IMG/VR virus record: IMGVR_UViG_3300046740_000705
Span: 1 to 50,938 of that record
DNA: 50,938 nt
Source of the DNA: a virus
Taxonomy: Duplodnaviria; Caudoviricetes
Strand: one strand, 5' to 3'
In this document: positions 30,272 through 47,481 of the stretch, piece after piece
Layout: each line of letters opens with the position of its first letter
Position numbering within the stretch: position 1 is the first letter of the stretch
The notes under the pieces: model-generated
The model's database searches: none
Told to the model about the DNA's origin: nothing
What the model saw: only the letters and a program-made list of their open reading frames with translations
Position numbers and translations under genes: made by a program

Positions 30272-30307
30272 TCCATCTGAAGGGACAGGTGCGCTTCACA
30301 GCGGACC
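30272..30307 (-). promoter_or_regulatory. Late-gene leader element, copy A
   Basis: GGU-C-CGCU-GUGA-AGCG-C-ACC ... UCCC...GAUGGA. Confidence 0.65.
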
Positions 30308-30318
30308 GGGTGGAGGAC

Positions 30319-33300
30319 TTAACCGAAGGCGTTCCGGCGGAGGTTGGTTTCGATGTCCACCAATGCGTCGTGCTGAGCATCGGTCTTCGCGGCCATCCAG
30401 ATGTCGAACTGGATCGTGACCTCAGTCAGCAGGTTGATGTATTCGCGGATGACCCAGGTGTTATCGGCAATCTTGCTGAGGTAGACATTCAGCGTGTAGT
30501 GCATGTCGTTGAGCTTGTTCCAAAGGTTCTGGCTCCAGGCCACCTCGTTGTCGTTCACATTGCCGACCCGGTTGTAGACATTGCTCAACCACCACGTCAC
30601 GTCCCGGCTCATGTCGTAGACCGCATTTCGCGTCGCCCACGGGTCGGGTGCTCCGGCCGCGACCTGGGCGACGATGCTATTCGCGGCGCCGTAGGTGGCG
30701 GCGATGTTGCCGACCGACATCGAGCCGATCGCGCCGATGATGGCGTTGCCGTTGGCGAAGGTCGCGCCGATCTCGTTCGAGGACGAGCCGTAGATTGCCC
30801 CGACGGTGATATTATCGGCGGCGAAGATGCTGTTGGTGATGCTGTTGCTGACCTGCGCCAGCATGCTGACGATGCTGTTCGCCGCCCAGGCCTGATAGTT
30901 GACGTCGGCCTGCCCCCAGTAATTGAGCGTGCCGATATTCGCGTTTCCCCACGCGGCGACGGTGCCGACAGTGGCATTGCCCCACGCGTCAACGGTCATC
31001 GTATTCCACGCGCCGTAGGCCGCGATCTGCTGGTAGATCGCATTACTCCACGCAGCGTTGTCGCCGACGATCCAGCCGCCGACGTTGTAGAGGGCAGTGA
31101 TCACCTGCACGTCGCCGACACTGACCCCCGCAAGCGCCTGGATTGCCGCGATCTGCTCGTTGGTTTTGGCCAGGACCGCATTGGTGCCGGCTTGTGTGGT
31201 CGCCGCGACGCCGGCCGAGGCGGCCTCGGTTCGCGCCCCCAGTTCCGAGGAGGTCGCGTGTGCCGTCCACGCGAGCGCTGCGGTGTTGTCGTTTGCGGTG
31301 GTCCTGACCGCTTCGCTGTTGCGGGTCGCGGTGTCGATGATCGAGGCCGCGGAAGTGTTGTTGCCGGCTACGATCGACTGCGCCGTGGCGTTGGTGGTCG
31401 ACACTACCGCCGCCGCGTTGCGGATATTCTGGTCAACCAGTGCGGCGCTCTGCTGCGCATTGGCCGCGAGGAGCGCGTTGGCGTTGCCCTCCTGCTGGGC
31501 GAGGAGATTCTCGGTGTCCTCTTTCGACCCGGCGATCAGCGTCCTCGAGTTCGCTTCGTTCGAGGCCAGCAGGGCCAGGGTGCCGCCCTTGGATACGTCG
31601 GTGCCGTAGGTGACCGCTTCGGCGGTGCTGTTGGCAGCATTAGCGACCAGCAGGGTCGCGCCCGAAACCAGCTCCGCGCCCGAGGTGGTGGCTCCGGTGA
31701 TCCGGGCTGACCCGTCGATCGCATTGCGCACGATGTCGTTCGACGTGTCGATCGCCACCGAGACGATCCGCGTCGAGCTAGCTCCCGTCTCGGCGACGAT
31801 ATCCCTCGCGGTCGCCCTGGCATTGTCGACGATCGCCTGATTGGTAGCAATGGTCGTGCCGATGATCGACTGCGCGCTCGCCGCCGTCGCTTCCGCCACG
31901 CCGGTCACGGTCGCGGTGCTGGCCTCGGTGATGGCATCGACAATTGCGTTGGTCTGCGTCTGCTGGGCGTCCGGCACCCCCGGCAATGAGGCCAGGGCGG
32001 CCTTGACGTCCTCCCACTCCTGCGCCCCCGGCGCCGCGCTGGCGAAGTAGCCCTGCAGGGCCGACTTCAACGCATCGGCGATGCCGGTGATCCCCTGCAG
32101 CGCATTGACATCGCCGCCCCTGGCCAAGCCCAACTGGGTCTGGAACTGGCTGCGCGCGGCCTGCAGACGGCTGGTCGGGCTGGTGAAATCCTGCCCGGTT
32201 TCCTGGGCGTTGAGGTACTGCCGAATCTGCAGCCCGGCCTGCAGGATGGCGTTGTGCCGCTGGTCCGCGTCGGCCTGCTTTTGGGTCGCGTCGGCCGCGT
32301 CCTTGGATGCCTGGATCAGACCGTAGGCCTCATCGACCCATGTCGCGAAAGCCGGGTTCAGTTCCGCCAGCGTCTTGCGGGCCAGCTCCAGCTGATCGTT
32401 GGTGAGGCCCTGCAGGATCGTCAGCGCCGCCTTGTGCTCTGTCTCCTGGATCACTCCGGACCTGGTATCACCCAGGTCGAGCGAGGCGGCATTGGCCTGG
32501 GCGGCCTTGCGGGCCTTGTCCAGGTCGCGCAGCTGGGCCAAGAACTGCTGCCCGGCGGCGGTATCGAAATCTTGCTGGATCTGGTAGGCCGCAGCCTGGC
32601 GATCCAACTCGCGCGTCAGCGCGGTCGCCGCTTCCGCCGCCGCCTTCGCTGCCCGCGCCAAATCCGGTAGACCGTTGGTCAGATCGCCGAACTTGCTGAT
32701 CACCTCGTCAAGCTGCGGCCCCGACAGGCTTTCGAAGATGGTGTTCAGTTCGGCGTTGAAGGTTGCGCCCAGCTTGTCGTGGATGCTGCGGTCGGCGCCG
32801 ATGGCAGAGGCGTCCCGCGCCATCTGCTCATAGCCGTCAATCACCCCCTGGACATTGGTCAGGAAGTCACGGCCGGTCGCTGCGTTAAAGGCAGTATCGA
32901 CCGCTTTCGAGAAATCGTTGTTGAGGCGTTTGGTGGCTTCCTCGAGCGCCTTGTTCACCGGCTCGACGGCAAGGCCGAATTGTTCTGCCTGTTGCGCCAT
33001 ACCAGCAAAGACAGCGTCGATCTGCTGCTTCACCAGTTCGAACGGACCCGTTTTCGCCGCTGTTTCAACGTCCTTGAAGGCGTTATCTACCGATGCCGCC
33101 AGCTTGTCGTAGGCATCGGCAAAGGCTAACGCGCCTTCGATCTGGGCCGGGTCGCCAATGCTATGGATGACCTTTTGGACGGTATCCGACACCCCGGTCA
33201 GGTTATCTCTCAGCGCGTTCAACCCGGCAGCGATGGCCTCTTCAGCCGATTGGAAGCGGTGCTCCTGCCCCGCAAACGACAGCTTGATGCCGTCGCGGCT

Positions 33301-36300
33301 CCCGGCCTGGATCGCCACCGCACCACCCGGCAATTTGGCACCGGGGATCGCCAACGCCCGCGTCAGTGCTGCCGACAGAACCGTACCGATCCGCGAGGCA
33401 GTCGCGTCGTTCTCGGCGTTACCGCCGGATTGAACATTGGTGATTTGCCCGGTGCCGAGATTGAGGACGCCACCACTGGCCGCATCCGGCTTCTTGTTGC
33501 CGCCGAACATGCCGCCCAACAGACCGCCGCCGGCACCGCCGATCAGACCACCAAGAAACGGCATGCCGACAAGCGAGCCGATTGCGGTTCCCGCCAATGC
33601 GCCGACACCCGAGCCGATCGTGCCGGTGGTCTTGTTACCGCCCGCCAGCATGTTGGCGATGCTGCCAGCCCCGAAACCCAGCCCGACGCCACCGGCAAAG
33701 CCGCCAAGTGTGGTCGAGCCAAATATCGAACCTGGCGCACTGGTGACGGGACCGACGCCAGCGGCGATGTCGGCTCCGGTCGGCGCGTGCGCGAAAATCC
33801 CGCCAAGACCGCCGGAGAAGAAATCACCGACACCAGAAAGCGAACCGCCAGTACCGAAGATCCCTTCGCTTCCACTACCTCCCAACCCCAACTCACCAAG
33901 CAAGCCGCCACCGGATTTAACCGTACTGGCGGCTGAGGTAAGGGTGCCGACGACCTCGCCCTTGGCGTTCTTCTGGACGAATTCCGTAGGAGTGCTACTG
34001 CCGCCGCCGCCAAACAAACCACCGCCGCCGCCGCCAACAACGCTGCTGAGCGCCGAGAAGGTGCCGCCGATCGAGCCGAAATCCGCCCCGACCTTGCCAA
34101 AGCCAGCGGCACTTAGAGCCGTTCCGATGATCGGTTTGATGAACAGCCCGCTGATCAACTGCTTCGTGATATCGTTGATCGTGGACTTTACCGTCGAGCC
34201 CCAATCTTTGACCTTCTGCCCGCTAAATGCGCCCGCCAAAGAGTCAGTGAGTGTGGTATCGATGGTCGTGGCCACTCCTTTGATGGCGTCGTTTATCGCC
34301 CCTGCGGCGCGCTGGGATTCCGCAAGCGCGATATTCTGTTGGCCGAGCGCATCGACGTTCGCCAAGGTCTTCTGATAGATCGCATCGGCAGTGGTCAGTC
34401 CGCGTGCTTCCAGATCCTGCTTCGCCTGCAACAGCGATACCTGGCGCTGCATTTCCTCCGATGTCTGAAACTGCAACCCGGCCTGGAGTTTCAGAACCTC
34501 GATCTGGTTGGTGCGCTGGTTGTTTTGCTGCTCAAGCTGGTAGGTCTGCTGCAGGACGTCGTTACGTTTGATCAATTCAGACGTGCTTTTGGTGATCGCC
34601 TCCGCCTGCGCGATCAGCGCGGGGTTACCTGAGGCGACCGCCTTCGCCAGCGCGTCATGGGTGGCGGTGACAACCTGGTTTGCCAGTACCTGCTCGTGTT
34701 CTGCGGCGGTCCCCTTCTCTGTCGCTGTTACCAGCCGCTGGCTTGCCGCGATCTGCAGCCCGAGCACCGGAACATTCTTGGCACCGGCCTCCGCCGCCTC
34801 GACCGCACTGGCGGTCAGCAACATCTGGGCGGTGGTTGTTCGCCCGGCCCGCTGCTCAAGCACGGCCGCCGCCTCCGCCGCCGCCTTCAACCCCGCAACC
34901 TCGCCTCCCTCTCCCAGGTAGGCGGCGGTGGTCGCCTGGACCCCGGCGACCCGAATCCGCTCCGTCTCATTGAGCACGGCATTTGCCTTGTCGTGCTTCT
35001 GTAGGGCTAGGGCGACCTCGTTCTGGACATAGGCGTCCTTCTGCGCCTGCGTCGCTTGCATGGTCAGAGTTGCGGTCAGCGCCGCGGCCCTGGCATCAGC
35101 GGCCACTGCCTCCCGGCCGACCTTACCGAACGAGTCCGCCAGGATCGCATTACGCGCCGCCTGGTCGTCCAGGATGATCTTGCCCTTGGCCGCTTGATCA
35201 GCGCGCGGATCGGCGGCAGTGGTGGGGACCGCCGGCAGACCGATCGACGCGCTGGGGGCACCACTGCCGGCCCCGCGCGACCCCATCATCTCGATATGCC
35301 ACGGCTCGAACGGATGCTTGTTCGGGTCGTTCATGGGGAAGTAAGCGCCGTATTTCGCGGCGTTGGCCGCCGCCCAGGCTAAAGCGGCTGGGTCGCGGGT
35401 GAGATCCGCAGCCATCCCCTTCTCGTGGATCGAGGTGCCGGGGGCCGCCACCATCCCCGAGGCCATGCCGCCGTGTTTCGCGATGTCGGCGTTGTAAAGC
35501 GCCAGCTGCTGCTCATAGGTGCGGAAGCCGCTGCTGATCCCAAGGTTGATCCCCTGCGATGCGGCGTCGGCGATCATCTTCTGCAGCTGTTCAGCGAATT
35601 CCGGCTTCAACCCGGTCAGGGAGCCGTGCGGCATGCTGAGGTCGGTGCCGCCGCGCGCCCCCGCCGCCTGTGCCTTGGCCGCGTCTTGCCAGCCGGTGCC
35701 CTGCGGGTCGCTGGCTTGCGGCAGTTTACTCTTGATCCAATCGTAGGCTTGGCCGAGCAGCTCGATTTCGTGCTTGGTGTTTTTGATGAACTGGTTGAAC
35801 TCTTTGAAGAAGTCTCTGATGATCGCCAGGGCTGGCGGGCCCATTTCATCAAGGAACTCGTTCCAGGTTTTCTTGAGGTCGTCGATGGTCTTCTGGAAAT
35901 CCGACTTGTTTTTTGCGTTGGCCTCAGCATAGGTCCGCTGCAGGGCTTGATACTCAATCCCATGCTGTTTCTGTTCGTCCCTCGCCAGTTTGCTCGCGCT
36001 GATGGCCTTGTTTTCAGCGTCGGTGTATTTGACCCCCAGTTCCTCGTTGAACCGCTCCAGGTCTGTGGCAGTGCCGGAAACGGCTTTGCCCAGCGCTGTC
36101 GCCTGCGCCACCAGATCGGTGCCGCGCGACCCGGAAATATTGAGGGCCAGCTGTGCCAGCCCCGTGCTGCCCCCGATGCCGGCCGGGCTAATCCCCGGCG
36201 TCTGGGCCAGTGCATTGATCGCCTGGGCGGCCTTCGCGGCTTCGACCCCCTGGTCACGCAACGACCTCGTGACAGCCTCAAGCCCCTCGGCAGTCTGCTC

Positions 36301-37773
36301 GCTTTTTGTCCCCATGATGTCGAGTGAGACGTTGTATTGCCGGATGCGGGCCTCGACGTCGGCCTGGCGCAGGGCCAGTAAGATGACCGACCCAACCAGC
36401 CCCACCACGGCCCCGGCCGCTAAGGTGGTCGGGGTGATCAGTTTGGTGATTGATTCTCCAAATCCCTTGAGGACCGCGCCGGCACCGCCGCCCTGCGAGA
36501 ACGCTTGCGCTATTTGCCCGCCCTGCTGGGCCAGGATGGTGAAGGGTGACTGCCCGCTCAGTAGACCAGTGGCAACGTCGTTGACCTGAAAGCCCAGGTT
36601 CGTCACGGCGGCATTAAATTGCCCGGTGCCTTTAGTAGCGGCCGCGGTCTTCTTCTCGGCGTCTGTCAGGGCCTTGTTGTGGGTGTCTGTTGCAGTGGCC
36701 GCGCCTCTTATCTTCACAATCTCTGTGGTGTAAGCGTCCTCTGCTTTGTTAAGCGCGGTACGGTGGATATCGACCCCGATCGCGCCTACCTTGAGGGCGC
36801 GGTTGATCTCCTCCTGTGCCGCTTCAAAGCGCTTCTGGGCCGCGAATAACGGGTCGTACTTCGCCTGGAGCTGATCCAGTTCGTTGCCATAGGCTTCAAT
36901 GTCGGCAGTCCGCGTCGCGGCGTCGGAACCGCCTGAGACGCCCGTCGTAGCATTGATCCGTTGCTGGATAGCCGTAGGTGCAGCCCGCTCCGCCGCTCTC
37001 TGAGCGTCGAGGGCGGCTTTCGACGCGTTTATCGCGGTGATCTGTTTTTGGTAGGCCCTGGTTTCTTTGTCGACCGCCTCAGCGTGTTCGTTCACATCGA
37101 TCGCGCCGAGCCTCAAGACCCGGTTTATCTCTGCCAGTTCCTCCTTGTGCGCCTGCTCCGCCGCGAACAGCGGGTTGTACTTGGCCCGCAGAGCGTCCAG
37201 GGATTGGCCGTAGGCCTGGATATCCTCGGCGCGTAGATCAGTCGGCGTCTTCGCCGGCGGCGGTGTCGGCCCAGCTGGCCCGCGGGTGACCCCGGTGACC
37301 CGGTTGATGCGCTCCTGCACCGCAAGGTTATCAACCAGGGCTCGGGTGTTCTCGACGGTCGCGGTGGTGCTTTTATTGAGCAGCGCCAGTCCGTCCTGCA
37401 GCTTCTTATTGACCAGCTCCAGGGCAAACGCCCGCTCGGTCGCGGTGCCGGTTTGCTCCTCCTCCATCCGGGTCAGGCGCTCGACGTCGTTGCGGTACTG
37501 CAACTGCAGCTTCGAGGCCTTGTCCATCCGCGCTATCCACCGCTCCAGCTCATTGGTGGTGGTGCGCTTGGCTTTGGTGACCCGGTCGTCGGTGGCGGCC
37601 GCGGCCACGTTGGAGGCCGCGGCTTCCTTGTTCGCGGCGGCGTTCTGTTGCGCCACCCCGGTCTGCTTCTCCATCTCAGCCGACAGCCGATTGATCGCAG
37701 ACTGCAGCTTGCCCGCGGCGTCTTCGCCTTGGACCTGCAACCTGGCAATAAAGGTGTCGACTAAGTCGGCCAC
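30319..37773 (-). CDS. Tape measure protein with embedded M15 (VanY-like) peptidase
   Basis: 2484 aa, Ala-rich helical; NLGFQVNDV..GL.SGQSPF..L.QQGGQI motif; SGFRTYEQQ...PGTSIHEKG.AADL...EPWHIE. Confidence 0.92.
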   Translation of the reverse strand: MADLVDTFIARLQVQGEDAAGKLQSAINRLSAEMEKQTGVAQQNAAANKEAAASNVAAAATDDRVTKAKRTTTNELERWIARMDKASKLQLQYRNDVERLTRMEEEQTGTATERAFALELVNKKLQDGLALLNKSTTATVENTRALVDNLAVQERINRVTGVTRGPAGPTPPPAKTPTDLRAEDIQAYGQSLDALRAKYNPLFAAEQAHKEELAEINRVLRLGAIDVNEHAEAVDKETRAYQKQITAINASKAALDAQRAAERAAPTAIQQRINATTGVSGGSDAATRTADIEAYGNELDQLQAKYDPLFAAQKRFEAAQEEINRALKVGAIGVDIHRTALNKAEDAYTTEIVKIRGAATATDTHNKALTDAEKKTAAATKGTGQFNAAVTNLGFQVNDVATGLLSGQSPFTILAQQGGQIAQAFSQGGGAGAVLKGFGESITKLITPTTLAAGAVVGLVGSVILLALRQADVEARIRQYNVSLDIMGTKSEQTAEGLEAVTRSLRDQGVEAAKAAQAINALAQTPGISPAGIGGSTGLAQLALNISGSRGTDLVAQATALGKAVSGTATDLERFNEELGVKYTDAENKAISASKLARDEQKQHGIEYQALQRTYAEANAKNKSDFQKTIDDLKKTWNEFLDEMGPPALAIIRDFFKEFNQFIKNTKHEIELLGQAYDWIKSKLPQASDPQGTGWQDAAKAQAAGARGGTDLSMPHGSLTGLKPEFAEQLQKMIADAASQGINLGISSGFRTYEQQLALYNADIAKHGGMASGMVAAPGTSIHEKGMAADLTRDPAALAWAAANAAKYGAYFPMNDPNKHPFEPWHIEMMGSRGAGSGAPSASIGLPAVPTTAADPRADQAAKGKIILDDQAARNAILADSFGKVGREAVAADARAAALTATLTMQATQAQKDAYVQNEVALALQKHDKANAVLNETERIRVAGVQATTAAYLGEGGEVAGLKAAAEAAAVLEQRAGRTTTAQMLLTASAVEAAEAGAKNVPVLGLQIAASQRLVTATEKGTAAEHEQVLANQVVTATHDALAKAVASGNPALIAQAEAITKSTSELIKRNDVLQQTYQLEQQNNQRTNQIEVLKLQAGLQFQTSEEMQRQVSLLQAKQDLEARGLTTADAIYQKTLANVDALGQQNIALAESQRAAGAINDAIKGVATTIDTTLTDSLAGAFSGQKVKDWGSTVKSTINDITKQLISGLFIKPIIGTALSAAGFGKVGADFGSIGGTFSALSSVVGGGGGGLFGGGGSSTPTEFVQKNAKGEVVGTLTSAASTVKSGGGLLGELGLGGSGSEGIFGTGGSLSGVGDFFSGGLGGIFAHAPTGADIAAGVGPVTSAPGSIFGSTTLGGFAGGVGLGFGAGSIANMLAGGNKTTGTIGSGVGALAGTAIGSLVGMPFLGGLIGGAGGGLLGGMFGGNKKPDAASGGVLNLGTGQITNVQSGGNAENDATASRIGTVLSAALTRALAIPGAKLPGGAVAIQAGSRDGIKLSFAGQEHRFQSAEEAIAAGLNALRDNLTGVSDTVQKVIHSIGDPAQIEGALAFADAYDKLAASVDNAFKDVETAAKTGPFELVKQQIDAVFAGMAQQAEQFGLAVEPVNKALEEATKRLNNDFSKAVDTAFNAATGRDFLTNVQGVIDGYEQMARDASAIGADRSIHDKLGATFNAELNTIFESLSGPQLDEVISKFGDLTNGLPDLARAAKAAAEAATALTRELDRQAAAYQIQQDFDTAAGQQFLAQLRDLDKARKAAQANAASLDLGDTRSGVIQETEHKAALTILQGLTNDQLELARKTLAELNPAFATWVDEAYGLIQASKDAADATQKQADADQRHNAILQAGLQIRQYLNAQETGQDFTSPTSRLQAARSQFQTQLGLARGGDVNALQGITGIADALKSALQGYFASAAPGAQEWEDVKAALASLPGVPDAQQTQTNAIVDAITEASTATVTGVAEATAASAQSIIGTTIATNQAIVDNARATARDIVAETGASSTRIVSVAIDTSNDIVRNAIDGSARITGATTSGAELVSGATLLVANAANSTAEAVTYGTDVSKGGTLALLASNEANSRTLIAGSKEDTENLLAQQEGNANALLAANAQQSAALVDQNIRNAAAVVSTTNATAQSIVAGNNTSAASIIDTATRNSEAVRTTANDNTAALAWTAHATSSELGARTEAASAGVAATTQAGTNAVLAKTNEQIAAIQALAGVSVGDVQVITALYNVGGWIVGDNAAWSNAIYQQIAAYGAWNTMTVDAWGNATVGTVAAWGNANIGTLNYWGQADVNYQAWAANSIVSMLAQVSNSITNSIFAADNITVGAIYGSSSNEIGATFANGNAIIGAIGSMSVGNIAATYGAANSIVAQVAAGAPDPWATRNAVYDMSRDVTWWLSNVYNRVGNVNDNEVAWSQNLWNKLNDMHYTLNVYLSKIADNTWVIREYINLLTEVTIQFDIWMAAKTDAQHDALVDIETNLRRNAFG

Positions 37774-37785
37774 AAAGCCCTCATG

Positions 37786-38306
37786 TCAGCGGCGCCGCGC
37801 CGCGGATGGTGGTGGGGAGACGGCCCGGCGGGAGAAGGCGCCGCCGATCGTCGGTGGATGGGATGGCAGGGCCTGCTGTCGCTGGGTTTCCGAATTGCTC
37901 TTCTCGCTGAGCACCGAAGCCCGCAGCATCCCCAGCTGCACTAGGGTGCGGGCCTCCCACGGCTCGATCGTCCCGACATCCATGATGACCTGCCAGGTCC
38001 GCAACGCCTCCCAGGTAAGGACCGGCGGGGCGAAACCGCTGGGCGACAGCCCCAGGCTGATTTCCTGGAACCAGGCCCACAGGTAATCGAGGACATCGGG
38101 AAATTCCGGGGCGTTGGCGTCGATCACCGTCGGCATTCGCACCGGCTGTGCCCGCCGATTGGCAGGCCGCAGCGCCGCGGGGATTTTCGCCCACTGCGCG
38201 GCGCCGGATTCCTCGTGCTCGCGCTCGGTCGAGCCGTCTACCGTTTTGCGGGAGCTTCTAAACTCGGCTTCTGCCCATTCGAGGAGATCTGCAACGAGGC
38301 CGGCGT
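37786..38306 (-). CDS. Tail assembly chaperone, -1 frame extension (gpT-like part)
   Basis: Open -1 frame from the slippery site runs into ORF 37786-38142 (YLWAWF.EI...L+W motif). Confidence 0.75.
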
Positions 38307-38711: not shown

Positions 38712-38716
38712 AAAAG

Positions 38717-38753
38717 CTCCATCTCAGGGAAATGGCGCGCCTCGCGGCGGGCC
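38717..38753 (-). promoter_or_regulatory. Late-gene leader element, copy B
   Basis: GGC-C-CGCC-GCGA-GGCG-C-GCC ... UCCC...GAUGGAG. Confidence 0.7.
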
Positions 38754-38764
38754 AAGTGGCGGGT

Positions 38765-38802
38765 AAAAGAGGGGCGCGCCACCCGCCAGCGACGCGCCCC
38801 TC
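38765..38802 (-). terminator. Intrinsic terminator-like hairpin after tail tube gene
   Basis: 10-bp stem GAGGGGCGCG/CGCGCCCCTC followed by TTTT on the - strand. Confidence 0.55.
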
Positions 38803-38860
38803 GGCAGCGCTACCGTCCGCCTGCGCGGACGTCGATCCCGTGGCGGCGGGATCTGGTGGG

Positions 38861-40123: not shown

Positions 40124-40130
40124 AGTTGGG

Positions 40131-40166
40131 CTCCATCGATGGGATTGGCGCGTCTCACGACGGGCC
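40131..40166 (-). promoter_or_regulatory. Late-gene leader element, copy C
   Basis: GGC-C-CGUC-GUGA-GACG-C-GCC ... UCCCAUCGAUGGAG. Confidence 0.7.
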
Positions 40167-40227
40167 GGGCGCCTTGCCCAAGGGCGGTTTGGCTAACCTC
40201 GCGCGGGCTTCACGCGAGGGATTGGGT

Positions 40228-40689
40228 TCAGCCGATTTGGTCGAAAAACAACTCCACCTCGACGGCGGCCCACCAGTAGTTGGTGACCTCTGAGGGCAGC
40301 CCTGGCGGCTTTAGTGCGGCCCCATCACCGCCGGGGAAGACGGTGGAGGCAAAGCAACTGACCTTGTCGTCCCGGTAGCTCCGATAGAGCGCGGCAGCCG
40401 TCTCGGCGATATCGGTGGCGTGGGTGACGCCCCAGCCTTTCGGGATGAAGACGAAGATGTCGAGCCGCGCCGGGTTGCGGTACCGGTTCTGGCCGCGTCC
40501 GCCGCCAAAGGCGACCATCTCACCCGGCTCGGTATCGAATTCGGTAAGGAGGAACGGCGCCGGCGTGTCGGGCAATGCCACCGCACCCAAGGAGTCCTCG
40601 TCCTCGTTTTGCCACCGCAGCGGTGGCAGGGAGGGTTCCGCCTCGAGCAGCGCCCGCAGGGCGCGGTATGCTTCGGACGTCGTCGTCAT
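40228..40689 (-). CDS. Tail terminator protein
   Basis: Size and position; W.NE...P.F...IFVF.P...G pattern. Confidence 0.7.
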   Translation of the reverse strand: MTTTSEAYRALRALLEAEPSLPPLRWQNEDEDSLGAVALPDTPAPFLLTEFDTEPGEMVAFGGGRGQNRYRNPARLDIFVFIPKGWGVTHATDIAETAAALYRSYRDDKVSCFASTVFPGGDGAALKPPGLPSEVTNYWWAAVEVELFFDQIG

Positions 40690-41348
40690 AGGTTATCGAA
40701 GAAGATCGCTGGCGCTCGCACTGGGTTGCCGATTTCCGGCCGGCGCTTGCGCAGCTTACCCATGCCGATCGAGTAATGGCTCGGAAGCTTGCCTTTGATG
40801 ATGTACGCCTGCGGCATGGTCACGTAGCCGAAGGTCAGTTTGACGGCGTTGCGGTAGCGCTCGCCGAATTGCCGGCTGACCCGTTCGTAGATCCGGTTCG
40901 GCTTGCTGACCAGGAAGTCGCGGCCGGAGGTTGTCTTGCCGACTTCGAGTCGCCGCGCATACACCAGCGGGTTGGCGATCATGATCTCTTGGCCCCGGCG
41001 GATCGGGGTGTTGAGCGGCACCGGGCGGCCGTCCAGGTAGAGCTGGTGGCCCTTCTTGTACCGGCCGCTGTCGACCGGCGAGGCGTCCTGCAGCGCCTTT
41101 AGCACGAGCCGGATGACCTCGAGGTCGTACCGGTATTTGTAGACGATCAGCCGCTGCGCTTGTTCGACCGGCCGTCCCTTAGTATCGCCGAACCCCTCCC
41201 ATTTGGGCATGTAGCCCGACCGGCGGAATTCGTTTTGCAGGATAGAGTTGTGCTCGGCTTGGGCGGCCTTGACGAACCGCCGGCGAGCCTCCTCGGTCGC
41301 TCGCGGCACGAAGAACGGCAGTTCGCGGCGGATGGCGTTCAGTGCCAC
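40686..41348 (-). CDS. Neck/tail-completion protein (HK97 gp10-like)
   Basis: SPVDSGRY...N...YARRLE.G; basic. Confidence 0.7.
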   Translation of the reverse strand: MALNAIRRELPFFVPRATEEARRRFVKAAQAEHNSILQNEFRRSGYMPKWEGFGDTKGRPVEQAQRLIVYKYRYDLEVIRLVLKALQDASPVDSGRYKKGHQLYLDGRPVPLNTPIRRGQEIMIANPLVYARRLEVGKTTSGRDFLVSKPNRIYERVSRQFGERYRNAVKLTFGYVTMPQAYIIKGKLPSHYSIGMGKLRKRRPEIGNPVRAPAIFFDNL

Positions 41349-41351
41349 GGT

Positions 41352-41705
41352 TCAGCCCTTCGCGTGCACCACGTAGGCGATCAAGTCGGGACCGACCGCC
41401 CGCGTGGCATTATCCGGGAAATTAATCGCCAGTTCGCGGGTCCCGAAGATCAGCTTGTCGCCCGTCGTGATCGGCAGGGTAAAGCCACCCGCCACCAGGT
41501 CTTCGACCAGGATCACCGCCAGGAAGTCGAAGGTCATGACATCGCCGATCAGAGCGCCTGCGGCCGCTCCCCGCACCCGTGCGCGACAGGGGGTGTCGGC
41601 AAATGTCCGGTTCGGACCCGCCGGGCCGGTGAAGCGACGGATCGCCACCTGGTGCGTCAGGTTGCGGCGATAGGTCGACCGCGCCTGCTCTGCGGTGATC
41701 GTCAT
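41352..41705 (-). CDS. Head closure protein
   Basis: Position after connector; ATGA coupling. Confidence 0.65.
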   Translation of the reverse strand: MTITAEQARSTYRRNLTHQVAIRRFTGPAGPNRTFADTPCRARVRGAAAGALIGDVMTFDFLAVILVEDLVAGGFTLPITTGDKLIFGTRELAINFPDNATRAVGPDLIAYVVHAKG

Positions 41706-42355
41706 AGGAACCACAGCCGATAGGATTGCAGCCAGAAGCAGATTTCGGGCGGCGGCCGGCTGTCGCTGTAGCTGCTGCCGCTCGAGGCACTGTCGTTCTG
41801 GTACACAACCGAAATGACGTCGGGGATCGTCTCGCTGCGCAGTGCCGGGTCGCGGCCTTTGGCCATCCAGCGCGTGTTGAGCCACTGCAAGGCCCCGGCC
41901 TTAACATCCGCCGGTATCGGCTCGAACCCGCCCGTGTAGTCGAACAGCACCAAATTGCCGCCCCAGGCCGCGATCATGTTGGTTTGCAGCCGGTAGATGG
42001 CGCCGTTCTCGGCGTCGACCTCGTATTGATCAGCCCCGAGGACAACCCCGTCTTCGGTTACCACCAGCGTGTCGGTATCGATCGGCGGTTGCCGGACCCG
42101 CAGCGGTTGGCCAGGGTTCAGCCAGCTGGAGAGCTGTCGACCTTGATCTTGGTAGACCTGCTGCGGGAAGATCCGATTGCAGTAATTGTTGATGGCAGCG
42201 CTGATCGCGTTGATCTGGGCGGTTAGAGCGACGTCGCTGCTAGTGTCGGCCGGATCGATGCCCAAGGCCGCCTTGACTTCTTCCAAGGTCACCAGGGCCA
42301 TGTCGGTGGCCGGCGTGACGACCCGCGTGATCCGATAATTGGGGTTGGTCGCCAT
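41702..42355 (-). CDS. Head-tail connector (gp6-like)
   Basis: LVTLEEVKAALGI...D..L...I.A.S..I.NYCNR...YTGGF..IPADV..G. Confidence 0.85.
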   Translation of the reverse strand: MATNPNYRITRVVTPATDMALVTLEEVKAALGIDPADTSSDVALTAQINAISAAINNYCNRIFPQQVYQDQGRQLSSWLNPGQPLRVRQPPIDTDTLVVTEDGVVLGADQYEVDAENGAIYRLQTNMIAAWGGNLVLFDYTGGFEPIPADVKAGALQWLNTRWMAKGRDPALRSETIPDVISVVYQNDSASSGSSYSDSRPPPEICFWLQSYRLWFL

Positions 42356-43434
42356 TAGGCGCGCTCAAGGTGGTACTGCTCGAACAACTGCCGCAGGTCG
42401 AGCGGTGGCCCGAGGCTGCCATCCGACATGATCGGCAGGGCGCGAAAATCGTCCGTGGTGGCCCAGTCGACGATCGAGAGGGTCGCCGGCCCCGGCGGGC
42501 CGCGCTCGCCCTTTTCGCCGGCCTTGCCGCGGCTGCCGCGGACGGCCGCCATCGCCCACCCCGCACCCGGAATCGCGCCGGGGTCATCTTCCTTGGCGCG
42601 CCACTCGGAGCCGTTGAAGGTCACGATATCGAATTTCCGGTAGAGCTGATCCGCCCGGTATAGACCGCAGACCTCACCGACATATGGCGCGTCACCCGGT
42701 GGCCCCGGCGGGCCGGGGGGACCAACATCCCCTGGTTCGCCGGGTGGGCCAGTAATGGCCTCCCCTGGGGCACCCCGTTCCCCAGGTTCACCGGGCGGCC
42801 CTGGTGGCGCGGGAGGAATTAACGCCACCGCGGCCTCGATCAGTCGGGCAATCACAGCGTCGTCGGGTGGCGGGCCCGGCGGTCCGGTAATGCTGTCACC
42901 GGGAGGTCCCGGTGGGCCGGGCGGACCGGGCTCCGCCGGCGGCATCAGGGAGGGCAGCAGTCTCAGCACCGCATCCGCGGCGATCCGGTCAATAACGGCG
43001 TTATCGGGCGTCGGTCCTGGGGGCCCTGGCGGGCCTTCGATAGCTTCCCCTGGCGGCCCCGGCGGGCCCGGCTCCGGCGCCGGCAATTGCGCCATGGCAT
43101 AGTCGAGAAACTGCAGCAAGGTTGCCGCGTCGGGCGCCGGTCCGGGTGGGCCTGGCGGCCCCTCGATGCTGTCGCCGGGCGGTCCTGGCGGACCGACGAC
43201 GCTGTCGCCGGGCGGCCCCGGTGGGCCCGGTGGGCCGTTCTCCAGGGCGGCCAGCCGGGTATTGATCAGGCGTTCGTAGTACAGCTGGATTTCGGCGTGC
43301 TTGGCCCGATACTCCGCCCGCATTTCAGCGACGGCGGACGTATACGCACGTTCCAGATCGCGCTCGATGCGAGCGACGATCAAGCCAAGCTCTTCTGCTG
43401 CTGCTATCTCAAGCGGCGAAACGGTGGCGGTCAT
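42355..43434 (-). CDS. Collagen-like (GPP repeat) virion protein with C-terminal aromatic beta module
   Basis: Multiple (GPP)n tracts; [16 protein letters not shown]; start at ATG 43434. Confidence 0.8.
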
Positions 43435-44797
43435 AGCTCGATCGGATCGTGGAGCGGAAAGCGGCCGTGCCGCCGTCGGCCGGGGCCGGGGGCGGCGCGT
43501 CGGGGGCCGGGGGCGCCGGGGTATTCGGTGGCGCTTTGTCCCAGGCACTAAGCGGGACGACCTGCTGCTGCACGCGGGGTTCGTCGCCGAACTTAACGGC
43601 CGAGTACTCTTCGCGGGCGCGGGCCTCGTTGGGGCTGAAGATGCCACCTTGGACCCCTCTGACGAGGCCCTCGATCCTGTCCTTAAAATTGGCGCGCAAC
43701 AGCGCCTCGAGGTCGAGTTCGAGGTAGTCATCAGGCCAGCCGGCGAGGGCGAAGAGCCGGCCGAAACCATCTTCGATATGGTTGGCGGAAAAGCCCAAAC
43801 CGGTGCTGACCCAGAATTCCATATGGCTCTGCGTGGCGCCCTGCGGGGCCGCACCGTCCATCAGCGACAGGAGGGGCAATGGCACCCGATACGCGGTGGC
43901 GATGCGCTGGTCAGATATCCGCAGCACCTCTGCCAGTTGCGCGTCGCGGCTGGTGACGGCCGACGCAACCCACTTGAGGCCCTGCGACAGAACCGGTGTC
44001 CCGCCGGCATTGACGCCTTGGGTCTGCTTGTTCCACTGGGCGCGGATTTGCTCGGCGGCCTCTTCGTTGAATTCCTGATCGCCGTGGATGACGCCGCTCG
44101 GTCGCCCCTGGTTCTTCGCGTACGCCAGAGCCTGCCCGATCAACTCCCGCGACACCGCCTCCTCGAGCAAGGCCGACTCCAACGGCGGTACGCCGATTAG
44201 CGGGTTGCGCTTGTCCGGTAGCCGGATATGCAGGACATCGCGTGCCGGCACTGCGTTGAGCGCGGACGGATTGCCGGCGAACAGTCGCTCGACGATCTGA
44301 TTGCCACCGAGCGTGTAGAATAGCTCACCGCTCTGGGCGACCCGCGGCCAACTGCGGCGCGGATCCATCAGGTGAATTTCGGATATCTCGAAGCGGGCAT
44401 TGCGCAGCGCCAGGCCAAAGGCCTCGCCCTCGCCATAGAGACAGTCGGTCAGGTAGAGGAAGAAGTCGGAGGGGGATTGGTAGGTGTTGGGCTTGCGCAG
44501 GATGCGCGACAGCGCCGAGGTCGACACCCGGACGCGGCCGCCCCTCCCGTCGGATTGCCAGTGGGTGCCTGGGCACATGGCGATCGTCTGCGCATAGGCG
44601 GCGCGGCAGGCGTAGACGACGGCAGACCCGCCGTAAGGGAGCGGGTCGTAGCCGTGCTGCCAATAATTGATCGGCCAGCTGGTCGGGATCAGGCCGCCAC
44701 CCAGGGCCAGCTGGTAGGCCGACTGTTTGGCGACCGGACGGAAGACGCGATTAACCGCGCCGACCGCCCGCCGGACCAGAGAGGTTGATGCCGGCAC
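43409..44797 (-). CDS. Portal protein (HK97 family)
   Basis: AVVYAC...L..PN.YQS..DF...L..GEAF...DVLHIR...GVPPL...IA.AYRVP...SPNEARARE. Confidence 0.93.
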
Positions 44798-44803
44798 CGG
44801 GGG

Positions 44804-45367
44804 TTACGACCGGCCCCGGCGCGCCCCGATGGGGTTGATCGTAATGGCGTTCGATGCCGGCGCCGCGGTTGTACCAAGCGTGTTGGTGGCGCTTACGATG
44901 CAGGTAATGCTCTTCCCGACATCTTCCGCCTCGACAATGTAGGTATCCCCGCCAGTGTCAGCCTTGACGTTTTCTCCGTCGGCTTGCCACTGGTAGGCGT
45001 AGTTCGCCACGTCTTGCTGCATGCCGCTCCAATTGCCCTTGGTGCAGGTCAATGTCTCGCCCACCGTGCCGCTGCCTTGAAGGTGGGGCACATCTTTGTT
45101 TTCTGGCGCCCCTGGCTGGGGCAGTGCCGGGCCCCCATCAACATGCGGTTCCGCTCTCTTCAGCAGTACGTTTTGGGCGCGGGTCGACGGCATCTCCGGG
45201 ACATCCGGATTGGCCTTATCGTCGACGTGCATTAGCCCGTGACGCATCAGATCTAGTTCTTCTTGGGTTGGCACCGGCACGCTTAGGGCCGTTACCCTTA
45301 GGGTCTGGTCCGTCAATTGTTGCCGCGCCTCTTGTTCGGCCCGGTATTCTGCCTCCGTCATCGCCAT
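44804..45367 (-). CDS. Head-associated protein with C-terminal Ig-like domain
   Basis: P.L.G...VGETLTC..G.W....YAYQW..DG......TY....DVG..ITC.V.ATN..G. Confidence 0.7.
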   Translation of the reverse strand: MAMTEAEYRAEQEARQQLTDQTLRVTALSVPVPTQEELDLMRHGLMHVDDKANPDVPEMPSTRAQNVLLKRAEPHVDGGPALPQPGAPENKDVPHLQGSGTVGETLTCTKGNWSGMQQDVANYAYQWQADGENVKADTGGDTYIVEAEDVGKSITCIVSATNTLGTTAAPASNAITINPIGARRGRS

Positions 45368-45385
45368 CGCCCTCTCCCTTTGTAA

Positions 45386-45417
45386 CAAGCCCGCCGAGGG
45401 TTTCCTCAGCGGGCTTG
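45386..45417 (-). terminator. Strong hairpin downstream of capsid gene (terminator or stabiliser; weak U-tract)
   Basis: 14-bp stem CAAGCCCGCTGAGG/CCTCGGCGGGCTTG with one G-U pair on the - strand. Confidence 0.5.
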
Positions 45418-45444
45418 CGCCAGGTGTATCGTCGCTTCAAATCA

Positions 45445-47451
45445 TCACCAGGTTACGGCTTGCGTCCAAGCGATGACGCCAGTGCGGCGCATGCCCCAGT
45501 TCATCGGCAAGATCATGCGCAGTGCCAGGCTATCGGTCTGGAACATTGACCGAACCGGCGCTGCCACGACCGGCGGTGTGCCGGCAGTGCCGATCTGCAG
45601 CGGGGTGGTGTCCTCGAAGTGCAATGTCGCCTGGTCGGAAACATCAAACCTGGGGTCGTCGCCGGTCACCGACATGAAATCGGCGGCGTCGAGCAGGATC
45701 AGCATCCCCGCCGGCACCGTCGAGGAGACGATCACCGGATAGCCCTGCAACGTCTGGCCGTTGATTTCAGCCTTGAAGGGGAAATCCCCACCCGCGTTTT
45801 GGGTCAAGCTGATGGCAACCGCCTGCACCGGGTTCATGATCCACACTGGCACCCGCAGTGAATTCGCGGCCGCCAGTACCCCGATCAGGGCTTTGATGTC
45901 GCCAACCAAGGCGTTGAACCCGCCGCCGGCGGTCGCCGCGGTGACGCTCACACCGTTGCGCAACCCAGGCGGGCGGATGCCTGACGCCGGATTGGCATCG
46001 ATCAGGATGGTGTCGACCGCGATCGACGTATCCTCCTGGATCAATTCCCGGATGATCTGCTCCGCTTGCGGGGTGCTGTGTTCGGCGATCTCCCTGGTGT
46101 AGGAGACGATGACGGCCATCTTTTTGAGGCCGAGGGTGACCGCCACGAACGCTGCTTGCCGCACCGGGATTGGCGCGCCTTCCGCAACGAACGACCCTGC
46201 CACTTGCGGCGACAATTGCCGGGTCGGCATCGAGATCTGGGCATAGCGGCCCAAGGTCGCGCGGAAGCCCCTCGACGACAGCGGACCATAGATACCGCCC
46301 GGCAACAGCGCGGCGAAATACTCGCCGTACTGGGTTTGGGCGAGTTCCGCGGCCCAGCCGACGGTGGTGGTGGTGGCCGGGGCGGTCGCGGCGCGGATGA
46401 ACCAGTCGTGCACGCCCTTGGTCTGCTCGAAGTCGCCATATTGACCGTAGCGCTCCGTCATCACCTCTGCCGGTGACCTCCGGGTGACATGCGCGATAGC
46501 CATGCAGACGCAGTGGCGGATCCACAGATAGCCGGGCTCTTCCTCCTTGCGCTTGGGGTGAGCCCACGTCGGCTTGGACGGCTGGCTGCGGGTCGCCGGC
46601 AGACCACCGCCGGGTGGGAACACTGTGGTCCGCCCGGCCGGCACTTCGACCGCCTGACTGTCATTCCCCAGGGCCCGTTCGGCGCGCACCAAGAGGGTCA
46701 GGTTTTCCTTAACCTCTTCGATACGCTCGGTAAGCTCACGCTGCTTAGTTTTGTCGTCGCCTTCCATGACGCTGACAAATTGTTCGCCCAACGACACTAG
46801 TTCGCTCTGGGCGACCTCAATCTTTTCGGAGAGCAACATTGGTTTCGACCTTAGGATGAGATCCTTTCCGGCTGGCTCGCCATGAAGCCCGCGACGCAAC
46901 AGCAGCGGTCGATCGCCATCGGCAGGCTCGCCAAAGATCAATCGCTGCGCTTCGCGGGGGATGCCTAGTTCTGCTGCCTTGCGTAGGGCATTGGCGTTGG
47001 CCGGTACGGTGACCAGCGAACACTCGACCAGCTCCTGCTCGAGGAAGCGGTAGCCGCCGACCTCAGAGTCCGGGAGCGGCTCATATTTCTTCGGGTGGAA
47101 GCCGACCGAGACGGCCCGCAGCATGCCGGCCTTGACCGCCGTCACGATGTGGAGCAGCTCCGGCGTCACCGCCTCCATCAGGTCGAGGGTGCCGACCATC
47201 TGGCCTTTTTGGATTGAAACGTCGCGCCAATTGCCGACGATGAACCTGGAGTTGTGCGCCCACAGCGCGACCGGGTTCTTATAGAAGGCCTCGAGATCCC
47301 ACCCGTCGGGCTCGATGACGTCGCCCATGCGGTCGACGCTGCCGTCACTCATGACGAAGGTCAGCGGGTCGCCGCTAGGCGACGGGGCCGCGACACTCTT
47401 ACGGATCGGCCCTTTACCGATCCTGCGGATCAGGTCCACGGCAGGCTCCAT
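45445..47451 (-). CDS. Prohead protease-major capsid protein fusion (HK97 fold); true start may be GTG at 47439
   Basis: DRMGDVI...NPV.LWAH...AVSVGF...LVECSLVTVPAN protease, then FVAEG..IP...WIMNP...LQGYPVIVS capsid motifs. Confidence 0.93.
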   Translation of the reverse strand: MEPAVDLIRRIGKGPIRKSVAAPSPSGDPLTFVMSDGSVDRMGDVIEPDGWDLEAFYKNPVALWAHNSRFIVGNWRDVSIQKGQMVGTLDLMEAVTPELLHIVTAVKAGMLRAVSVGFHPKKYEPLPDSEVGGYRFLEQELVECSLVTVPANANALRKAAELGIPREAQRLIFGEPADGDRPLLLRRGLHGEPAGKDLILRSKPMLLSEKIEVAQSELVSLGEQFVSVMEGDDKTKQRELTERIEEVKENLTLLVRAERALGNDSQAVEVPAGRTTVFPPGGGLPATRSQPSKPTWAHPKRKEEEPGYLWIRHCVCMAIAHVTRRSPAEVMTERYGQYGDFEQTKGVHDWFIRAATAPATTTTVGWAAELAQTQYGEYFAALLPGGIYGPLSSRGFRATLGRYAQISMPTRQLSPQVAGSFVAEGAPIPVRQAAFVAVTLGLKKMAVIVSYTREIAEHSTPQAEQIIRELIQEDTSIAVDTILIDANPASGIRPPGLRNGVSVTAATAGGGFNALVGDIKALIGVLAAANSLRVPVWIMNPVQAVAISLTQNAGGDFPFKAEINGQTLQGYPVIVSSTVPAGMLILLDAADFMSVTGDDPRFDVSDQATLHFEDTTPLQIGTAGTPPVVAAPVRSMFQTDSLALRMILPMNWGMRRTGVIAWTQAVTW

Positions 47452-47481
47452 CGATGGGATACGCGCGCTTCACAGCGGGCG
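47446..47481 (-). promoter_or_regulatory. Late-gene leader element, copy D
   Basis: CGC-C-CGCU-GUGA-AGCG-C-GCG ... UCCCAUCGAUGGAG. Confidence 0.7.

Follow-up and report, generated by a model that had tools for sequence, protein, structure and literature searches.

A covarying hairpin leader upstream of late structural genes in phages of Alphaproteobacteria

Four copies in one phage genome

The window that we analysed is the whole of IMG/VR record IMGVR_UViG_3300046740_000705, 50,938 nt of DNA from a virus of the Caudoviricetes. It holds four copies (A to D) of a short element, all on the minus strand and each directly 5′ of the start of a late gene (Table 1). The order of parts is the same in all four: a 20-nt hairpin, then UCCC, then GAUGGA(G); the hairpin is made up of 3 bp, a C-C mismatch, 4 bp and a GNGA loop. 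The first-pass annotation had given the four locations and the hairpin sequences exactly, and its claim that the stem differences among the copies are compensatory holds for every one of them. It had also named the gene behind copy D a tail hub; the sole match of this gene is to a family of unknown function, and a distal tail or hub role is suggested by the gene order, in which it follows the 2484-aa tape measure.

Table 1. Copies of the element and the genes that they precede (positions in the window)
Feature	Position	Strand	Hairpin	UCCC	GAUGGA(G)	Start codon	Matches
Copy A, before protease-capsid fusion gene	47446-47481	minus	47462-47481, CGC-C-CGCU-GUGA-AGCG-C-GCG	47456-47459	47446-47452	GTG 47437-47439 (conserved)	
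Copy B, before tail tube gene	40131-40166	minus	40147-40166, GGC-C-CGUC-GUGA-GACG-C-GCC	40141-40144	40131-40137	ATG 40121-40123	
Copy C, before tail assembly chaperone gene	38717-38753	minus	38734-38753, GGC-C-CGCC-GCGA-GGCG-C-GCC	38727-38730	38717-38723	ATG 38709-38711	
Copy D, before post-tape-measure gene	30272-30307	minus	30288-30307, GGU-C-CGCU-GUGA-AGCG-C-ACC	30282-30285	30272-30277 (GAUGGA)	ATG 30269-30271 (abutting)	
Protease-major capsid fusion gene (copy A)	45445-47439	minus					phrog_617 major head protein, 5.2e-83; phrog_80 protease
Tail tube gene (copy B)	38861-40123	minus					phrog_290, 1e-42; Pfam PF18906 (Phage_tube_2), 2.3e-24
Tail assembly chaperone gene (copy C)	38238-38711	minus					phrog_313, 2.7e-08
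518-aa gene after tape measure (copy D)	28715-30271	minus					phrog_8917 (unknown function), 1.4e-110

At copy A the first ATG falls within GAUGGA and is out of frame in one relative; the start kept in relatives is a GTG, 6 nt past GGAG. It is in copy D, and not in copy A as had been reported, that the GGA abuts the ATG; lacking a spacer between the two, copy D is a poor Shine-Dalgarno (SD) arrangement.

The tail pattern TCCC-N2-6-GATGGA was matched four times in the window against 0.60 expected, and 1 of 100 shuffles reached four. The combined pattern of hairpin and tail is matched at four places in the genome, each of them on the minus strand, and nowhere in the reversed control. A covariance model, which the first-pass annotation had proposed, was built and run over the window with filters off: copies A, B, C and D scored 58.0, 58.7, 53.4 and 54.6 bits, while the runner-up, a match to the hairpin only at 15895-15912, scored 12.8 bits.

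Pairing, conserved positions and distribution

Among the nine seed copies 98.4% of cells pair, four of the seven pairs vary on both sides, and the covariation score was reached by none of 500 shuffles. For 100 distinct copies the figures are similar: 98.8% of 691 cells pair, against 10-65% in slid controls, and changes on both sides are seen in 82 cells against a shuffle mean of 20.2 (0/500 shuffles reach the observed value). The covariation of the stems shows that the hairpin forms in the single strand. The comparison of copies supports a structured element that is specific to one strand and tied to starts, and it supports the view that the hairpin, together with its link to the SD, is a feature of RNA.

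The alignment A4 was derived by pattern and fitted to the model, and its column conservation arises partly by construction; only the complementarity of the stems, and the state of mismatch and loop in a relaxed pattern search, escape this bias. This exhaustive search, in which mismatch and loop were left free, returned 71 distinct matches, with C/C at the mismatch in 68, a GNGA loop in 65 and complementary bases at the variable pairs in 69. The UCCC and the GA preceding GGA (GA-W-GGA) are invariant only in samples where the pattern had fixed them. The tail consensus of the 100 distinct copies is UCCC-N2-4-GA(U/A)GGA(G), with an A/U-rich, single-stranded spacer between UCCC and GA; in about 19 of the 100 the loop has 5 nt, GNGA with an added U or C, and GCC follows GGA in only ~55-63% of copies. 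No conserved block beyond hairpin, UCCC and SD was found in the 100 distinct copies, and none upstream in 113 copies. An invariant G-A stands immediately 5′ of the SD. The 3′ region of the host 16S rRNA lets the GA before GGAG lengthen the SD pairing, but SD extension fails to explain the conserved GA, since the majority U of GAUGGA makes a U-U mismatch with the 16S tail.

The element is widespread in unrelated phages of Alphaproteobacteria and is not private to one phage. The hairpin stem is formed in 124 of 128 pattern matches in IMG/VR; in a scan of bacterial genomes ~13 of 120 matches form it, 11 of these 13 in Alphaproteobacteria and the other two on short contigs of metagenome-assembled genomes labelled Planctomycetaceae and Hydrogenedentes. 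None of 400 other sampled alphaproteobacterial genomes had the element (0/400). Its carriers are unrelated siphovirus-, myovirus- and podovirus-like genomes, each with one to four copies internal to an operon and before individual cistrons. In 87 of 104 distinct copies with an ORF downstream, this ORF codes for a major head, scaffolding, sheath, tube or major tail protein. The marked genes belong to many unrelated PHROG families. The orientation always matches that of the downstream gene, and GGA lies at a distance of 7-10 nt from the start in 82 of the 104 copies. On podovirus-like contigs the element lies before the scaffold gene and again before the next gene.

Relatives of the phage differ in which sites are occupied. 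The site orthologous to that of copy B is occupied in several (L002 and others, L016 and L020), and orthologues of copy C are found in L002, L007 and L014, some with the 5-nt loop GCGAU. Upstream of the tube gene, close relatives L010-L012 are missing a clean 22-nt hairpin; upstream of the chaperone gene, 32 nt with the hairpin and UCCC are missing and the SD is retained. Copy D is missing from G016, a relative that is complete; there the stop codon of the tape measure and the same ATG stand 4 nt apart. Copy D is thus an insertion or deletion difference of ~47 nt.

Possible readers and effects on expression

That the element exists, how it folds, where it stands and in which phages it occurs are shown by the data, and so is the want of a phage partner common to its carriers; an effect on expression and the identity of a reader are what we infer. 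No phage protein is common to all 18 near-complete carriers, the largest cluster covering 10 of them. The NusG paralog, put forward as a candidate reader in the first-pass annotation, finds no support: 8 of 30 carrier records encode the NusG-like protein phrog_6386, and of the 16 that are at least 90% complete 4 do. A recruitment site of NusG/RfaH/LoaP type was rejected on this count and on the position of the copies, which are internal to operons, before single cistrons, and not at the operon head. Antitermination, suggested at the same time, does not fit a fixed start spacing of 6-9 nt with one to four copies before individual cistrons. We infer that the invariant mismatch, loop, UCCC and GA would reflect recognition by a specific partner. 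As the carriers have no phage protein in common, this partner most likely comes from the host and could be the ribosome or bS1, or else an RNA-binding protein or RNase of the host.

On balance, we lean towards the element being a portable high-expression leader, which would act on translation and/or mRNA stability and be read by a host component. Such a module would be carried within the late polycistronic mRNA and would have three parts: a stable 7-bp hairpin with the GNGA tetraloop and the conserved C-C mismatch; the conserved single-stranded UCCC; and an extended SD, GA(U/A)GGA(G), with the start codon 6-9 nt on. Phages of Alphaproteobacteria would place this cassette by short indels before the genes of products made in the highest numbers (major capsid, scaffold, sheath, tube and major tail), and it would raise the yield of the marked cistrons relative to their neighbours. 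The element could insulate the ribosome-binding site and serve as a docking (standby) site for the 30S subunit; as a 5′ barrier, it could also shield the downstream mRNA segment after cleavage. The earlier suggestion that the element sets virion protein stoichiometry agrees with the marking of genes for high-copy proteins.

A bolder form of the high-expression leader, possible though doubtful, is a 'ribosome-capture' cassette that would spread horizontally and be peculiar to Alphaproteobacteria, and in which a conserved host component would read the hairpin (C-C, GNGA) and UCCC directly. The reader could be the 30S subunit, through a contact of tetraloop and mismatch on its platform, or a host RNA-binding protein with no known link to translation so far. 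If this is true, any phage could boost one cistron by inserting ~30-47 nt before its SD; the element would then be a portable enhancer of translation found in nature, whose RNA meets the ribosome or a protein at a defined interface, and it would be an expression tool for Alphaproteobacteria.

The label 'enhancer' may hide a specific operator, because a generic insulator or stabiliser needs no invariant C-C or GNGA. At such an operator an RNA-binding protein, of the host or a very small phage peptide, would time or limit translation as a repressor or an activator; we regard this as unlikely. Both the C-C mismatch and the G-N-G-A loop are kept where the search left them free, and the 5-nt loops recall the GNRA-like pentaloops that are read by peptides. 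boxB hairpins are read by arginine-rich peptides, and a small arginine-rich peptide could be too short and too diverse for BLAST to link. An operator is harder to reconcile with the sharing of proteins described above (at most 10/18 for a cluster, 4/16 for the NusG-like protein), with the span of carriers over siphovirus-, myovirus- and podovirus-like genomes, and with the link to the highest-copy proteins, which suits an enhancing role better than a repressing one. The many unrelated families of the downstream proteins make autogenous control unlikely.

It seems improbable that the element is an RNA processing signal, where an endonuclease such as RNase E would cut beside the hairpin and leave segments of different stability. 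The A/U-rich single-stranded spacer between UCCC and GA adjoins a stable hairpin as such a signal might, and there is alphaproteobacterial precedent in the puf operon, where hairpins give segmental stability to polycistronic mRNA. Still, the position is fixed to the downstream start and not to the upstream stop codon, from which the window copies are separated by gaps of 11 to 107 nt, and a cut between hairpin and SD would strip the hairpin from the gene it marks. The processing reading overlaps the stability half of the high-expression leader.

Action at the level of DNA, where the element would be a late promoter or would bind a protein before highly expressed genes, is in our view quite improbable. 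In T7-type phages promoters sit before scaffold and capsid genes, a layout resembled by the scaffold and capsid placement on podovirus-like contigs, and the invariant G-A right before the SD could belong to a DNA site. Against this, the compensatory changes keep pairing and not base identity, the C/C breaks dyad symmetry, a transcript begun past the element would be without its SD, and the start spacing is 6-9 nt. The region shows no enrichment of sigma-70-like sites, and the T7-type RNA polymerase domain PF00940 was found in 0/18 near-complete carriers by a search run without a positive control.

We consider it very improbable that the element is a two-state switch, similar to a thermometer or riboswitch, in which the 5′ arm or UCC would alternatively pair with the SD region and hide it. 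The 5′ arm is complementary to GAWGG-A-GCC in the consensus, with 75% of cells pairable against 17-42% when slid, and this alternative helix is the predicted minimum free energy (MFE) structure for copy B; for copy A the hairpin itself is the MFE structure. Folding in context predicts pairing of the SD bases with a mean probability of 0.70, which at 64% GC is weak evidence either way. The pairing observed for the 5′-arm helix, whose positions are nearly invariant, was however reached by 87/500 column shuffles, and that of a second SD-sequestering candidate by 169/500; no covariation is seen in either. The GCC is absent from many copies, and the local hairpin would fold first and is far more stable. 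Pairing of UCC with the GGA of the SD, as first proposed, also lacks covariation, which cannot reveal it since both sides are nearly invariant, and has a mean predicted probability of 0.15 over 113 copies.

A neutral or selfish palindromic mini-repeat, spreading through phage intergenic regions without function, would account for the clean indels and the variable presence between close relatives, but is hardly credible for an element with a fixed start spacing, always in the orientation of the downstream gene, enriched before major virion genes (87/104) and conserved at unpaired positions while its stems covary.

Comparison with known systems

Stable stem-loops 5′ of a strong ribosome-binding site are known in highly expressed mRNAs, in the T7 major capsid leader and the ompA leader, and hairpins of this type are credited with mRNA protection and efficient initiation. 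Those leaders are single cases, each defined by its promoter or through RNase III processing, and not a portable conserved motif; the element described here has an invariant mismatch, loop and UCCC across unrelated phages.

The boxB of lambdoid nut sites is likewise a short G+C-rich stem with a GNRA-type loop, sometimes with a fifth base, and is read in nascent RNA. Nut sites, however, come after early promoters, are paired with boxA and act on RNA polymerase, whereas the element lies 6-9 nt before late structural starts and has the SD as part of the motif. A lambdoid nut site was rejected on this placement and because no conserved block in the 100-copy consensus resembles boxA.

An intrinsic terminator was rejected too, as the hairpin is followed by NN-UCCC with no U run. 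None of the four 20-nt hairpins was called in a terminator scan, whose sole call touching an element was a short stem in the tail of copy C (38719-38735).

The search of Rfam 15 at gathering thresholds over the whole window returned only int-alpA (5904-5972), and at E<=10 over 38650-40250 no hit overlapped copies B or C. This agrees with the first-pass view that the element belongs to no named Rfam family, copies A and D having been covered at gathering thresholds only. The element appears to be an undescribed expression signal. It may already figure, unnamed, in a 2023 catalogue mined from the same kind of data, the intergenic regions of IMG/VR (version 3.0), whose main text reports 8495 unnamed candidate structured RNAs, 879 of them at most 25 bp upstream of genes, five of which typically precede a major capsid domain (PMC10690425). 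By that text none of the 8495 is functionally characterised, and it gives no sequence or structure for them (PMC10690425).

The closest likeness in placement is to SAS, the 13-nt GGGATAGGAGCCC described from the non-structural right arm only of actinobacteriophages of one cluster, Cluster K (2011, PMC3203893), and recognised by this consensus with at most two deviations, 3-7 bp before a start (PMC3203893, PMC12699233). SAS too is a short, conserved, asymmetric sequence of one orientation with an SD core inside, a few bases before the starts of some phage genes; an inverted repeat often lies upstream, and it is nearly absent from hosts and conserved across gene families. Its function still awaits experimental test (PMC12699233). 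Cluster K SAS/ESAS was rejected as an identity for the element, as the likeness of the tail consensus to SAS is limited to the SD core with its flanks. The element differs further in being found in phages of Alphaproteobacteria, before major structural genes and in many unrelated carriers. In the published account of the 17-bp imperfect inverted repeats upstream of SAS, departures from symmetry lend no support to RNA pairing, and its authors incline to DNA binding (PMC3203893); the hairpin of the element, in contrast, covaries as RNA, with compensatory changes in its stem.

Hairpin, tail and covariation

The first-pass annotation had described a hairpin with a short downstream tail just before four late structural genes, and, read on the minus strand, the four sites (copies A to D in the table) are letter for letter as it gave them. 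Each 20-nt hairpin has three base pairs, a C opposite C, four base pairs and a loop GUGA or GCGA; on its 3′ side follow 2–3 nt, UCCC, 3–4 nt and GAUGGA(G). A whole-genome search with the combined hairpin and tail pattern produced four matches, all on the minus strand, against none for the reversed control, and a covariance model built from nine copies gave the four sites 53–59 bits, with the next site at 12.8 bits. By both measures the four copies are well clear of chance. Folded in isolation, the hairpin is the minimum-energy structure in three of the four copies, while copy B favours an alternative helix. In copies B and C, GGAG is the Shine–Dalgarno sequence (SD) and the ATG starts 5–8 nt further downstream; in copy D the GGA directly touches the ATG. 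The conserved start behind copy A is a GTG at 47437–47439, which is retained by relatives, and in one relative the ATG within GAUGGA of the capsid copy is out of frame.

We applied the model to 100 of 118 IMG/VR loci, leaving aside the window's near relatives and the seven final loci, and found 130 copies, 100 of them distinct in sequence. In the alignment of distinct copies 98.8% of 691 cells were paired, and in four of the seven pairs both sides varied, each such pair occurring in as many as four types. Cells with double changes numbered 82, compared with 20.2 in shuffles (none of 500 reached 82); controls with a slid register were 10–65% paired. Part of the column conservation in this alignment is circular, since the model shaped the alignment and a pattern served to collect the loci. 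This bias was removed with an exhaustive relaxed pattern that placed no constraint on the loop, the variable pairs or either mismatch position. Of the 71 distinct matches to it, C was opposite C in 68, the variable pairs were complementary in 69 and the loop was G-N-G-A in 65 (GUGA 49, GCGA 10, GAGA 6); three otherwise intact copies had other loops. Several stem versions occur inside single gene families (capsid, scaffold); therefore, the compensations are repeated events.

Hairpins resembling that of the motif were also seen outside this setting. The window has one in its early region (15894–15913), with the C/C position, a GUGA loop and one non-pairing stem cell, which lacks the UCCC and SD tail; a relative, G001, has a similar tail-less hairpin beside an apparent divergent gene start. 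In the tube-chaperone gap of a relative with 59% identity (L042 in record G014) there is a hairpin with the motif's outer stem, the C/C position (plus one bulged A) and a GUGA loop, located upstream of a terminator-like structure, far from any SD and with no UCCC/GAUGGA tail. Thus, as in L042, the motif hairpin may also exist as a free-standing unit.

Distribution, downstream genes and turnover

The exact pattern of hairpin core and tail matched at least 118 stretches in IMG/VR. It demanded no pairing at the variable positions; a perfect 4-bp inner stem with two or more outer pairs was present in 124 of the 128 matches listed. The same pattern gave at least 120 matches in 596 Gb of bacterial genomes, most of those listed being stemless; about 13 of them appear genuine, with a start codon after them. 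Of these 13, 11 are from Alphaproteobacteria (Rhodospirillales, Rhodobacterales, Paracoccaceae, Hansschlegelia, Caulobacteraceae, Caulobacter, Pseudolabrys, Methylocystaceae, Rhodopila and two unnamed MAGs) and the other two sit on short contigs from MAGs with different labels; one genuine match (L211) is a prophage related to the window phage. Prophage copies in cultured strains were seen in Hansschlegelia sp. KR7-227 (L207) and Caulobacter sp. B11 (L288). The exact pattern was absent from 400 further sampled alphaproteobacterial genomes, and the covariance model added one weak match in 150. Absence from hosts is judged by the exact pattern, because the covariance scan scored only 43 candidates per genome. 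Given the abundance in IMG/VR and near-absence in bacterial genomes, the motif is a phage feature and not a host leader. These scans upheld the original observation and showed it to be far broader than a reader of one sequence could see.

GenBank phages gave no match to positions 28000–48000 by megablast, and only chance or partial matches to two copies of 45–49 nt by blastn; no cultured relative came up in tblastn with one scaffold protein linked to the motif. Whole-genome model scans of three cultured alphaproteobacterial phages, reached by the short-copy blastn or by capsid similarity (phiKM1, RHph_X2_26 and PhiJL001), showed no motif, with best scores of 15–16 bits.

The genes behind the motif were considered for 104 distinct copies, among the matches listed, with an ORF starting at most 16 nt away (four being doubtful matches from non-alphaproteobacterial genomes). 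In 82 of these the GGA lies 7–10 nt from the start. According to annotations made on cluster representatives, 87 precede a gene for a major head protein (PHROGs 617/10, 283, 1005, 29, 264), head scaffolding protein (3927, 673), tail sheath (165), tail tube (185, 290/Phage_tube_2) or major tail protein (158, 807, 1407, 13196); a chaperone gene follows one further copy, a tail-fibre-like gene another, and the other 15 genes are of unknown function or unannotated. Podovirus-like contigs have the motif before the scaffold gene and again before the next gene. Near-complete carrier genomes contain one to four copies, the window having the most. At one locus (L129, 4258–4352, plus strand) tandem copies 57 nt apart serve one capsid gene, the first with no ORF of its own.

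Related phages do have the element at late-gene starts, patchily: in many of 25 IMG/VR loci with tube proteins 50–82% identical to that of the window it occupies orthologous sites ahead of the genes for capsid, tube and chaperone; the stems there differ by compensatory changes, and the loop is sometimes 5 nt long. In three loci with 74% identity (L010–L012) exactly the 22-nt hairpin is missing before the tube gene, and 32 nt (hairpin and UCCC) are missing before the chaperone gene, with the SD retained. In the complete relative G016 there are three copies, the post-tape-measure gene being without one; the sequence at that gene is a stop codon, 4 nt and the same ATG, so that copy D corresponds to an indel of ∼47 nt. 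Given its patchy presence, the clean absences and this indel, the element behaves like a module gained and lost.

The late gene block and other RNA structures

The window is a complete virus record of 50,938 bp in IMG/VR. Its late genes are in the table in their order on the minus strand, followed by RNA structures.

Late genes, motif copies and RNA structures of the window
Feature	Coordinates	Strand	Remarks
NusG-like protein	50279–50803	-	head of late gene block; phrog_6386, 3.9e-8; Pfam NusG 21.5 bits, slightly below the 22.2 cut-off
HNH endonuclease		-	
Small and large terminase		-	
Two small ORFs		-	one encodes a 56-aa hydrophobic peptide
Copy A	47446–47481	-	
Protease-capsid fusion	45445–47451	-	
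Ig-like protein		-	
Portal, then connector proteins		-	
Copy B	40131–40166	-	
Tail tube	38861–40123	-	
Copy C	38717–38753	-	
Chaperone	38238–38711	-	
Tape measure		-	2484 aa
Copy D	30272–30307	-	
Post-tape-measure protein	28715–30271	-	518 aa; PHROG family of unknown function
Two hairpins	40167–40227	-	tail-terminator gene to copy B
Terminator-like hairpin	38757–38802	-	tube stop to copy C; 10-bp G+C stem, then T run
Hairpin-only motif relative	15894–15913	-	12.8 bits
int-alpA RNA	5904–5972	-	49.1 bits (gathering score 35.8), E 3.1e-07; sole Rfam match above gathering

The order of head genes (43409–49430) is unusual, with the portal only after the large terminase, two small ORFs, the protease-capsid fusion and the Ig-like protein. 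The two hairpins upstream of copy B are kept in relatives, and in L010–L012 the second takes the place of the motif hairpin, adjoining the UCCC-SD tail.

The loop (UGGCGGGU) of the terminator-like hairpin after the tube gene is complementary to ACCCGCCA directly 3′ of the T run; the loop GGCGG and the downstream CCGCC, right before the chaperone SD, also occur in relatives with 50–59% identity in the tube gene (L019, L022, L023, L025). The hairpin could form a pseudoknot or a terminator/anti-terminator; Rfam gives it just a weak asX1 match (29.3 bits versus a gathering score of 70). Together with the NusG-like gene, this hairpin suggests that the late operon undergoes processive antitermination without involvement of the motif.

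Possible role and relation to known systems

Strictly gene-matched orientation, fixed start spacing, a built-in SD, placement mainly before genes for the most abundant virion proteins in unrelated phages, and modular gain and loss argue for a cis signal acting at the RNA level to raise output of particular cistrons. The earlier proposal of a new cis-regulatory RNA is supported in kind; its suggested pairing and its suggested reader are not supported. Judging from sequence patterns, we lean towards a high-expression leader: it would dock the ribosome or insulate the start region, and/or shield the 5′ side of the downstream mRNA segment. A host component would specifically read the C–C mismatch, GNGA and UCCC; the invariance of the first two, with the conserved UCCC, is taken as a sign of such a reader.

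That the element is instead an operator for a specific protein is possible, with a clearly smaller chance. The phage NusG paralog, proposed as reader, is present in eight of 30 carrier records and in four of the 16 that are at least 90% complete, and so is not a general partner. When six-frame ORFs from 18 near-complete carriers were compared all against all by BLASTP, no protein cluster was present in every carrier (the comparison would miss very small or rapidly evolving proteins); the most widespread clusters, those of capsid and portal, reach 10 carriers, and the carriers split into at least two unrelated groups. A T7-type RNA polymerase domain was found in none of the 18, in a search with no positive control.

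A processing site we regard as unlikely, and a DNA-level site as slightly less likely again. The 30 nt upstream of the motif contain no conserved promoter-like block (T runs in eight of 113 copies), and a terminator and promoter scan of 30000–49900 stayed at chance level.

A switch in which the SD is hidden by pairing is improbable. Context folding of 113 copies gave the UCC:GGA pairing put forward in the first-pass annotation a mean predicted probability of 0.15. Two alternative SD-hiding helices had 75–76% of cells pairable in the consensus, but this was reached in 87 and 169 of 500 shuffles, and, unsupported by covariation, both were set aside. The tail is best treated, on these predictions, as a conserved single strand. 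In four host genomes with prophage copies the 16S 3′ region reads ...GGATCACCTCCTT then TCT or TCA; therefore, the conserved G-A before GGAG could extend SD pairing. SD strength alone does not explain the conservation, because the commonest form, GAUGGAG, sets U opposite U. A neutral repeat is the least credible reading and has very little probability.

Returning to the high-expression leader, to our knowledge the setting of very unequal protein amounts from one late transcript is understood in only a few model tailed phages. In the present case, a single compact RNA signal marks the high-copy virion genes in unrelated phages across a whole bacterial class; its covariation is clear, it keeps an unusual C–C mismatch, and there is evidence of its modular insertion and loss. 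If it boosts expression, it would offer a general rule for reading phage genomes, flagging the major structural genes in alphaproteobacterial viromes; it would give access to a host factor or ribosome feature peculiar to these bacteria; and it would be a ready part for expressing genes in Caulobacter, rhizobia, Rhodobacter and relatives.

Possible functional analogues are the leader of the T7 capsid gene, 5′ stabiliser hairpins, boxB and the puf operon. The element, which had not been recognized as a named family, indeed has no match in Rfam 15, and a full-text literature search found no description of it. A survey published in 2023 mined the intergenic regions of IMG/VR and predicted 8495 structured RNAs, all unnamed, of which five lie before a capsid domain (PMC10690425); as far as the available portion of that source goes, the motif may already be among these candidates, with no name or function attached. 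The nearest described system is the start-associated sequence (SAS) in Cluster K mycobacteriophages, which comes with extended inverted repeats (PMC3203893, PMC12699233). According to the accessible parts of these papers, the SAS is likewise SD-containing, start-proximal, phage-specific and unexplained, but the sequence, host and gene class are different, and its repeats are described there as lacking RNA covariation. The motif is also a tractable counterpart of these mycobacteriophage sequences.
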